This document shows, piece after piece, positions 3,120-3,974 of a stretch of 64,000 nt of DNA. The first letter of the stretch is position 1. Every line of letters begins with the position of its first letter. The notes below the pieces were generated by a model that saw nothing but the letters and a program-made list of their open reading frames with translations, made no database searches and was not told the DNA's origin. A program made the translations under genes and the position numbers. The stretch lies in the NCBI RefSeq assembly GCF_013122565.1, contig NZ_CP053258.1. One strand, written 5' to 3'. The stretch comes from Escherichia coli. Its GTDB lineage: Bacteria; Pseudomonadota; Gammaproteobacteria; Enterobacterales; Enterobacteriaceae.

Positions 3120-3974
3120 ATGTACATCATTTCAAGCAAAAACATGCTGAAAAAAGCCCAGTCAGAGGGATATGCCGTCCCTGCTTTCAACATTCATAAC
3201 CTTGAAACTTTACAGGTAGTTGTTGAGAGCGCTGCACAACTTCGCTCTCCCGTTATGCTGGCGGGAACACCCGGTACTTATCGTTATGGTGGCGTGGGAA
3301 GTTTAATTTCGTTAGTACAATCGCTGGCTCGCGAGTACAACCTGCCGTTAGTCCTGCATCTCGACCATCATGAAGAGAGTGATGACATTTTTAACAAGGT
3401 TCGCGCAGGGATCCGTTCTGTCATGATTGATGGCTCCCATTTGCCATTTGAAGACAACATTGCGCGAGTGCATGAAGTTACCACCTTTTGCCATCGCTTT
3501 GATGTTAGCGTTGAGGCCGAGCTAGGGCGTCTTGGCGGCCAGGAGGACGATCTGCTGGTGGATGAAAAAGATTCCGCTTATACCTCACCAGCCGCAGCGG
3601 CAGAGTTTGTTCAACGTACCCAAATTGACTCCCTGGCCGTAGCAATCGGCACAGCACATGGTTTATATGCGCATGAACCACGCCTGGATTTTGTGCGGCT
3701 GGAACAGATTCGTCAGCGAGTGGAGATTCCGCTGGTGTTGCATGGTGCTTCGGGCTTATCAGAACAGGACGTTCAGCACTGTATTCGCCGCGGTATTTGT
3801 AAAGTGAATGTCGCGACAGAATTGAAAATTGCGTTTGCCGATGCGTTAAAAGGATATTTCTACAACAATCCTGCGGCAAATGATCCACGCCACTATATGC
3901 AGCCCGCAAAGGCCGCCATGAAAGAAGTCGTAACTCGTATTATTGGCGTCTGTGGCAGTGAAGGAAAAATTTAA
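3120..3974 (+). CDS. Class II ketose-bisphosphate aldolase, GatY/KbaY-like (tagatose-1,6-bisphosphate aldolase family)
   Basis: 284-aa ORF; strong resemblance along its length to GatY/KbaY/FbaA class II aldolases ([49 protein letters not shown]); AGGAG RBS. Confidence 0.85.

Follow-up and report, generated by a model that had tools for sequence, protein, structure and literature searches.

The closest described relative of the locus studied here is the tag cluster of Escherichia coli Nissle 1917 (EcN), an 8.5-kb region between accC and yhdT that is absent from K-12 (Ha et al. 2022, iScience, PMC9720028). It consists of eight genes in two divergent units, with 341 bp between them. Deletion and complementation, carried out with the EcN allele, demonstrated its role in growth on D-tagatose. 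EcN deleted for the six-gene operon showed no growth on D-tagatose, the same operon carried on a plasmid gave D-tagatose growth to K-12, B and W strains, and deletion of the operon kinase in EcN abolished growth on tagatose (PMC9720028). Growth via the island also required PfkA, as seen in a ΔpfkA test, and the proposed route runs from import of D-tagatose by an ABC transporter through tagatose-6-phosphate (T6P) and tagatose-1,6-bisphosphate (TBP) to DHAP and glyceraldehyde-3-phosphate (G3P). Most of phylogroup B2 carries this island (PMC9720028).

The TBP aldolases best known from E. coli are GatY and KbaY, and the proteins associated with them, GatZ and KbaZ (here called Z proteins), carry the RefSeq names 'putative ... 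aldolase chaperone', taken over from EcoCyc. According to PMC10101011, purified E. coli GatY and KbaY had TBP activity far below that of Bacillus licheniformis GatY, and the authors put this weakness down to the missing Z proteins; the B. licheniformis enzyme was active without GatZ and was treated as Z-independent. The same paper describes an evolved BL21 strain that grows on tagatose through KbaY. More recently, GatZ and KbaZ were reported to provide F6P-to-T6P C4-epimerase activity in E. coli in vivo, and their 'chaperone' label was questioned (PMC11907403, 2025). This epimerase activity weakens the model in which the Z proteins are obligate aldolase subunits. In the PDB, AgaY/KbaY (1GVF) and GatZ (2FIQ) are each found by themselves; a GatY-GatZ or KbaY-KbaZ complex, sought in order to map an interface and its conservation, is not among the entries.

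We analysed a stretch of 64,000 nucleotides of E. coli DNA (referred to as the window) that contains an island bounded on the left by yhdT (646-888, minus strand), placed from the annotation of a collinear RefSeq genome, and on the right by accC (9569-10918, minus strand), likewise placed by annotation. Next to yhdT, and also on the minus strand, lie a second PfkB-family sugar kinase gene, which we call kin2 (981-1916; ortholog of ECOLIN_RS18705), and a gene for a DeoR/GlpR-family regulator (1948-2778; ortholog of ECOLIN_RS18700). RefSeq annotates the kin2 product as 'sugar kinase'. It scored 346 bits against the TagKinase model NF049991, below the cutoff of 420, and it is 51% identical to the operon kinase (PMC9720028); we regard it as a candidate tagatose-6-phosphate 1-kinase. 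The regulator was assigned from its RefSeq annotation and from AgaR/GlpR-type NCBIfam matches, all of them sub-cutoff.

On the plus strand, the aldolase gene (3120-3974) opens a six-gene operon. It is followed by the genes of an ABC importer, namely a periplasmic sugar-binding protein (4010-4900; RbsB/AlsB-like matches), an ATPase (4961-6460; XylG/AraG/RbsA-like matches) and a permease (6461-7450; AraH/RbsC-like matches), all three in agreement with the annotation. The next gene encodes a PfkB-family D-tagatose kinase (7472-8434; ortholog of ECOLIN_RS18675), which converts tagatose to T6P; this assignment draws on the deletion in EcN and on the match to NF049991, where the score of 414.3 bits falls just short of the cutoff. 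The last gene of the operon (8431-9477; ortholog of ECOLIN_RS18670) encodes an aldose-1-epimerase/mutarotase-like DUF4432 protein (Pfam PF14486, E = 1.6e-104). The divergent intergenic region between the two units (2779-3119) is 341 bp long and is the probable site of the promoters of both operons. Promoter-like hexamers were found in it at 2893-2928 on the plus strand and at 2944-2915 on the minus strand, together with an inverted repeat, CTTTCAAAATGAA/TTCATTTTGTAAG, at 3051-3093, which is a candidate DeoR-type operator. The G+C content is 0.435-0.459 over positions 2001-8000, compared with about 0.51-0.52 in the flanks.

The window island and the EcN tag cluster occupy the same accC/yhdT site and contain eight genes in the same order, and they are alike in their 341-bp divergent intergenic region and in their low G+C content. 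Because gene order, insertion site, spacer length and base composition all agree, the locus in the window is the EcN tag cluster, and both the island and its aldolase gene are thus already known from the literature (PMC9720028). It is a D-tagatose utilisation island that E. coli gained by horizontal transfer. Its aldolase is the ortholog of ECOLIN_RS18695: both proteins are 284 aa long and have the same RefSeq product name, and the allele is the sole difference between them. The published identities of ECOLIN_RS18695 are 63.7% to GatY and 56.3% to KbaY (PMC9720028), and those of the window aldolase are 64.3% and 56.7%. We are highly confident that the TBP-aldolase gene of this published island is the one at 3120-3974. 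An earlier note on this DNA had not recognised the locus as a published and experimentally validated island.

The aldolase ORF is intact, begins with ATG and has a Shine-Dalgarno sequence, AGGAG, 7 nt upstream. In an NCBIfam profile search the 284-aa product passed the cutoff of TIGR01858, the curated TBP-aldolase equivalog (476.8 bits, cutoff 443.55), that of the GatY subfamily model NF009374 (528.8 bits, cutoff 383), and that of the broader class II ketose-bisphosphate aldolase model TIGR00167 (cbbA, PF01116; 333.2 bits, cutoff 215.6, over residues 1-283). It did not reach the cutoff of the KbaY equivalog NF009375 (376.1 bits, cutoff 542). Every class II fructose-bisphosphate aldolase (FBA) equivalog in NCBIfam was likewise below cutoff, for example TIGR01859 (312.5 bits, cutoff 343.05) and NF009497 (315.3 bits, cutoff 423), and the model for the E. 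coli-type class IIa enzyme, NF006628, gave 100.1 bits against a cutoff of 297. These cutoffs rule out that the protein is an FbaA ortholog. Its alignment with K-12 GatY and KbaY is gapless. From the AgaY and FbaA literature we take eight positions to be zinc-binding or catalytic (D82, H83, E134, E142, H180, H208, N230 and R257 in KbaY numbering), and all eight are identical in the island aldolase, KbaY (1GVF) and GatY. In a neighbour-joining tree the protein clusters with aldolases of tagatose clusters and not with K-12 GatY; gat and tagatose-PTS clusters contain its closest relatives.

Of 5426 complete E. coli genomes, 1421 carry the aldolase gene, and every one of these copies is full length. 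The allele of the window is matched at 99% nucleotide identity or more in 197 genomes, and most E. coli copies, including many from human isolates, are 95-99% identical to it; over its whole length the window reaches only about 99% identity to the best complete E. coli genome. The island lets roughly one in four of the complete E. coli genomes grow on D-tagatose, a food sweetener. One copy labelled as plasmid-borne (H22) lies on an unlocalised contig full of IS1 that carries gatZ, IS1, the aldolase gene and a Zn-dehydrogenase gene, and is uninformative. Within the clade of ABC-type islands that have no Z gene (the crown clade), dN/dS for the aldolase is 0.03-0.12, indicating strong purifying selection. 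The gene is therefore kept by selection, even though the hosts in this group also possess GatY and KbaY.

To look for a partner of the GatZ/KbaZ family (about 420 aa), we compared K-12 GatZ and KbaZ with all six frames of the window by tblastn. Only short chance matches were obtained, the best with E = 0.18. An HMM built from nine GatZ/KbaZ proteins gave no match at E ≤ 1 among six-frame ORFs of at least 60 aa in the window, whereas in a control the same model retrieved all nine true Z genes of the comparison loci described below with E < 1e-226. A hidden or divergent Z gene in the 64 kb is thereby ruled out. The earlier note had described the enzyme as GatY/KbaY-like and without a Z-type gene in the island or elsewhere in the window, and both statements are borne out, the first by the percentages of identity and by TIGR01858. 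It had also named two findings that would overturn its view, an adjacent GatZ ORF and a standard FbaA ortholog; tblastn and the HMM found no such ORF in the window, and the FBA equivalog cutoffs were all missed.

Relatives of the aldolase were collected in one scan of species-representative genomes, which yielded 34 loci. For their annotation, tblastn queries were the proteins of the island, GatZ/KbaZ, gatABCD, tagKTH and a kinase of lacC type, and Z genes were confirmed by HMM. A Z gene lies within 10 kb of the aldolase gene in seven of the 34 species-level loci and in none of the other 27, so that in this clade GatY-like aldolases stand more often without a Z gene nearby than with one. Among loci with an ABC importer and a tagatose kinase, those of E. 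coli, Enterobacter ENT03 and Superficieibacter continue with the DUF4432 gene, and those of Trabulsiella and Enterobacter BIGb0383 continue directly with accC; no Z gene was found within 10 kb in either group. In Serratia sp. H1w and Budvicia the ABC-type operon has a GatZ-type gene after the kinase gene. These two islands have the same operon order as the E. coli island, with importer and kinase genes 70-86% identical to its own, and their GatZ is 67% identical to K-12 GatZ and resembles 2FIQ more closely than it does the 3TXV type of rhizobia.

The remaining loci are of gat or PTS type. Buttiauxella and Pseudocitrobacter have the Klebsiella-type arrangement gatY-tagKTH-gatZABCD, with GatZ, and Serratia silvae has the classical gatYZABCD operon, also with GatZ. 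The tagatose-PTS unit gatY-tagKTH stands alone in Erwinia endophytica, Zophobihabitans, Enterobacter Ag1 and a Citrobacter sp., with no Z gene within 10 kb; in Lelliottia it adjoins the aga operon, of which the KbaZ gene found there is a part. Sixteen Gilliamella loci share the order gatABC-gatD-gatR-lacC-aldolase and have a lacC-like kinase gene instead of a Z gene within 10 kb.

The DUF4432 gene deserves separate consideration, as its slot in the E. coli operon is the one taken by GatZ in the Serratia and Budvicia islands, and in rhizobial clusters the corresponding position is held by the GatZ-family epimerase TagE (Ha et al., PMC9720028). DUF4432 homologs with 44-56% identity were found in three distant contexts: with a mannitol dehydrogenase and a PfkB kinase; with an FGGY kinase, a class II aldolase and a fucose-isomerase-like gene; and with a ribose-type ABC importer, an SDR and a lactonase. 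All three are operons for free (unphosphorylated) sugars, in keeping with a mutarotase-like helper whose substrate is the imported sugar. Speculatively, the protein may speed the conversion of tagatose from pyranose to furanose; such help is conceivable because the pyranose ring locks O6, the position that the kinase phosphorylates. That DUF4432 is a functional substitute for GatZ we rate as unlikely, in view of the free-sugar contexts and of the islands of Trabulsiella and Enterobacter BIGb0383, which have neither gene. Islands of the Trabulsiella type also indicate that neither DUF4432 nor GatZ is indispensable to the island.

The pathway that we propose would begin with uptake of free D-tagatose by the ABC importer and its conversion to T6P by the island kinase. 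Host PfkA, possibly joined by kin2, would convert T6P to TBP, and the aldolase, as a Zn-dependent class II enzyme, is predicted to cleave TBP to DHAP and G3P. If a Z protein stabilises or activates the enzyme at all, it would be supplied in trans by host gatZ or kbaZ. At a probability of about 0.6, we favour the reading that the aldolase is a self-sufficient Zn-dependent TBP aldolase for which host GatZ or KbaZ is an optional aid. Self-sufficiency is favoured because the full set of catalytic residues is present, many relatives have no Z gene nearby, a Bacillus enzyme provides a precedent, and the Z proteins have an epimerase role of their own. The premise of the earlier note, that aldolases of this family work with a partner of about 420 aa, is accordingly less firm than assumed there: the weakness of E. 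coli GatY and KbaY without Z proteins (PMC10101011) speaks for it, and the activity of GatZ and KbaZ as F6P/T6P 4-epimerases (PMC11907403) speaks against it.

By homology, the island aldolase could need a Z protein too, given the weak activity of purified GatY and KbaY without Z (PMC10101011). It would then be usefully active or stable only with GatZ or KbaZ of the host, acting in trans, and since hosts among the Enterobacteriaceae supply such a protein, the island could have lost a GatZ gene of its own. Such partners are widely available: gatZ (at least 80% coverage) is present in 5004 of the 5426 complete E. coli genomes (92%) and kbaZ in 5314 (98%). In NZ_AP019856.1, the nearest island-bearing complete genome, about 130 kb separate the aldolase gene from the aga cluster, which includes kbaZ and kbaY and so falls past the far end of the window. 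All hosts that served to validate the island carry both gatZ and kbaZ. The GatZ-type gene that follows the kinase gene in the Serratia sp. H1w and Budvicia islands is also consistent with a need for Z, and its retention suggests that a Z protein is of use in hosts that may provide none. Against such dependence, gat and aga are separate operons, each regulated by its own repressor, and their co-expression with the tag operon is therefore not assured. The four tagatose-PTS clusters and the 16 Gilliamella gat operons have closely related aldolases and no Z gene within 10 kb, and the role of Z proteins as chaperones or subunits is now in doubt (PMC11907403). We regard a strict requirement for a borrowed partner as the main rival, though a less likely one, and retain self-sufficiency of the aldolase as the preferred reading.

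A further alternative is that the island aldolase is a minor, redundant passenger, with host GatY and KbaY cleaving most of the TBP, or the epimerase activity of GatZ and KbaZ draining T6P to F6P. The published EcN deletion took out the six-gene operon as a block (PMC9720028), E. coli has two further TBP aldolases, and the evolved BL21 strain grows on tagatose with KbaY (PMC10101011). In our interpretation the ΔpfkA result fits the aldolase and epimerase routes alike and cannot tell one from the other, because F6P also needs Pfk. A second caveat to the published genetics is that K-12 gatR is interrupted by IS3E. This disruption probably makes GatY and GatZ constitutive in K-12, and could thus mask a need for the island aldolase as well as for a Z protein. 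However, the low dN/dS of the aldolase gene and its intactness in all E. coli copies are not what a passenger would lead one to expect, and in each ABC-type or PTS-type cluster examined the operon begins with the aldolase gene. Redundancy of this kind is therefore improbable. It is more improbable still that the enzyme acts on fructose-1,6-bisphosphate or another ketose phosphate instead of TBP: class II aldolases of like size do vary in specificity, and YdjI (6OFU) and several 'ketose-bisphosphate aldolases' are among the PDB matches, but the protein passes the TBP-aldolase equivalog cutoff and misses every FBA cutoff, its gene stands beside a tagatose kinase gene in an island for D-tagatose growth, and its nearest relatives belong to gat and tagatose-PTS clusters. 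The earlier note had left three options side by side, an autonomous enzyme, a borrowed partner and a different ketose phosphate as substrate. Of these, the first two are both viable and computation cannot separate them; the third has become unlikely, because the island gives D-tagatose growth (PMC9720028) and the aldolase passes the curated TBP cutoff.

How the aldolase may have come to stand in an operon without GatZ can be addressed from the distribution of Z genes. Across the 34 loci, Z genes go with the T6P-producing routes (gat, aga and ABC type) and are missing from the pure tagatose-1-phosphate PTS clusters and from the lacC-bearing Gilliamella gat operons. We tentatively suggest that the crown-group ABC islands (Escherichia, Enterobacter, Superficieibacter and Trabulsiella) lost an ancestral GatZ gene from the operon end, that their aldolase is a natural Z-independent TBP aldolase, and that Z genes track T6P routes; on balance we would not rely on this scenario. 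The ancestral GatZ-bearing form would survive in Serratia sp. H1w and Budvicia, and in alpha-proteobacteria a GatZ-family epimerase gene is found at the same position. In the neighbour-joining tree of the aldolases, the Z-less ABC-type crown group has a bootstrap value of 100/100, and the entire ABC clade one of only 40/100. The tree was therefore given up as evidence for a basal position of the Z-bearing ABC islands. Their polarity is based on synteny together with the alpha-proteobacterial outgroup from the literature, because the tree leaves the sister status of Serratia and Budvicia at 40/100; what ties these two to the crown group is the shared operon order and the 70-86% identity of importer and kinase genes. 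If GatZ was lost in this way and Z genes do track T6P routes, GatZ and KbaZ would be T6P-handling enzymes rather than aldolase subunits, and the island aldolase would allow a clean enterobacterial test of a question that has stood since 2002.

Set beside the known systems, the island aldolase does not represent a new kind of system. E. coli GatY (b2096), of the galactitol pathway, is like it a class II Zn-dependent enzyme of 284 aa, collinear with it and with the catalytic residues in common. The two differ in their surroundings: gatY directly adjoins gatZ in gatYZABCD, whereas the island gene is next to the genes of an ABC importer, and the 64 kb contain no Z gene. KbaY/AgaY (b3137; 1GVF) shares the fold family with the island aldolase but belongs to the GalNAc/GalN (aga) regulon, which includes kbaZ. 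In a two-gene GatY/GatZ or KbaY/KbaZ system the Z gene lies in the same operon or regulon; in the island, and in the 64-kb window as a whole, the aldolase gene has no such companion. According to PMC10101011, B. licheniformis GatY, a TBP aldolase of a D-tagatose cluster, works without a Z protein, which makes it a precedent for an autonomous enzyme. It is Gram-positive, however, and linked to a PTS pathway via tagatose-1-phosphate, and the island aldolase would resemble the Bacillus enzyme in behaviour only by extension.

In Sinorhizobium and Agrobacterium, the ABC-type tagatose/galactitol clusters share with the E. coli island the core of ABC importer and tagatose kinase (PMC9720028). The gene after the kinase is that of TagE, a GatZ-family T6P 4-epimerase, in these clusters and that of DUF4432 in E. 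coli (PMC9720028). They have no aldolase and convert T6P to F6P by the epimerase, whereas the E. coli island has an aldolase and no GatZ-family gene. These comparisons bear on a modest biochemical question, that is, whether GatZ and KbaZ are subunits or chaperones of aldolases, or T6P/F6P epimerases that share operons with them. The E. coli island, the Serratia and Budvicia islands that keep GatZ, and the lacC-bearing Gilliamella gat operons together offer a natural comparison in which the role of the Z proteins can be addressed.

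In the published work on the E. coli Nissle tag cluster, conversion of tagatose-6-phosphate (T6P) to tagatose-1,6-bisphosphate (TBP) was inferred because deletion of pfkA blocks growth (PMC9720028). This inference is confounded: if GatZ converted T6P to F6P, growth by that route would need Pfk too. At the K-12 gat locus (L002) gatR is disrupted by IS3E, and GatYZ is therefore probably expressed constitutively in K-12 hosts.

A module consisting of a second PfkB kinase (window 981-1916, minus strand) and a DeoR-family regulator (1948-2778, minus strand), divergent from the aldolase, is common to the ABC-type and PTS-type tagatose clusters (window, L004-L020). 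The kinase is 56-100% identical to its counterparts in L004-L020, and is absent from Enterobacter BIGb0383 (L008) and from the plasmid of Ha et al. (PMC9720028). It could be a tagatose-6-phosphate 1-kinase redundant with PfkA. Two repeats may serve as operators for the DeoR-family regulator. One is an inverted repeat, CTTTCAAAATGAA/TTCATTTTGTAAG, at 3051-3093, a short distance upstream of the ribosome-binding site of the aldolase gene, and a direct repeat, TTT(N)TTTG(A/T)AAGTTAT, is found at 2813-2830 and 2978-2995 within the divergent intergenic region.

When the aldolase (window 3120-3971) was compared with that of E. coli E69 (L004:8406-9257), amino-acid identity was 95% and dS was 0.55, a value between two E. 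coli island alleles that is far above typical within-species divergence of core genes. Nucleotide identity to the window gene was at least 99% in 197 genomes, 95-99% in 1211, 90-95% in 12 and 80-90% in one. The high dS, together with these banded identities, suggests either that the allelic lineages are old or that the island was acquired more than once at the accC/yhdT site. Three pieces of the window of 12-25 kb, core genes included, had best identities of only 98.9-99.0% among 5426 complete E. coli genomes; thus the lineage of the window is not closely represented in that set, and it may be Shigella or a divergent branch of E. coli. Another aldolase gene, 87.6% identical to the window gene at the DNA level, is located on a plasmid-labelled contig full of IS1 fragments (L039; NZ_JBTZOT010000002.1, 55169-59258), which carries gatZ, IS1, the aldolase and a Zn-dependent dehydrogenase. 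The segment seems to come from a different gat-like cluster and to have been scrambled or mis-assigned.

The ABC-type islands of Serratia sp. H1w and Budvicia diplopodorum are orthologous to the E. coli island and have the same gene order. Directly after the tagatose kinase, both contain a GatZ-type gene (L011:15400-16653 and L016:15665-16918 respectively), whose product is 67% identical to K-12 GatZ. In the E. coli island this slot is occupied instead by a DUF4432 gene (window 8431-9477, plus strand), whereas in the islands of Trabulsiella and Enterobacter BIGb0383 it is empty and accC comes straight after the tagatose kinase. The literature on DUF4432 (PF14486) is essentially nil, with two incidental mentions in the papers searched. 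Homologues (L040, L041, L042) are located in varied operons for the catabolism of free sugars, where their neighbours are importer genes and genes for kinases, dehydrogenases or isomerases. These diverse contexts would fit DUF4432 being a sugar mutarotase family that is so far uncharacterised.

Tagatose-PTS clusters with the order aldolase-tagK-tagT-tagH were found at L015, L017, L019 and L020 (Erwinia endophytica, Zophobihabitans entericus, Enterobacter sp. Ag1 and Citrobacter sp.), with neither GatZ nor gatABCD within 10 kb. In Buttiauxella and Pseudocitrobacter (L012-L014) the same cluster is followed by gatZABCD. Among the comparison loci sampled, gatZ/kbaZ-family genes accompany routes that produce T6P and are missing from the pure tagatose-1-phosphate route. 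The galactitol operon of Gilliamella from the bee gut, at about 4700-10852 in each of 16 loci (L022-L033, L035, L037), has the order gatABC-gatD-gatR-lacC-like kinase-aldolase, and no GatZ-family ORF was present within 10 kb on either side. Here a dedicated, predicted T6P kinase, the lacC-like gene product, occupies the position that GatZ has in enterics.
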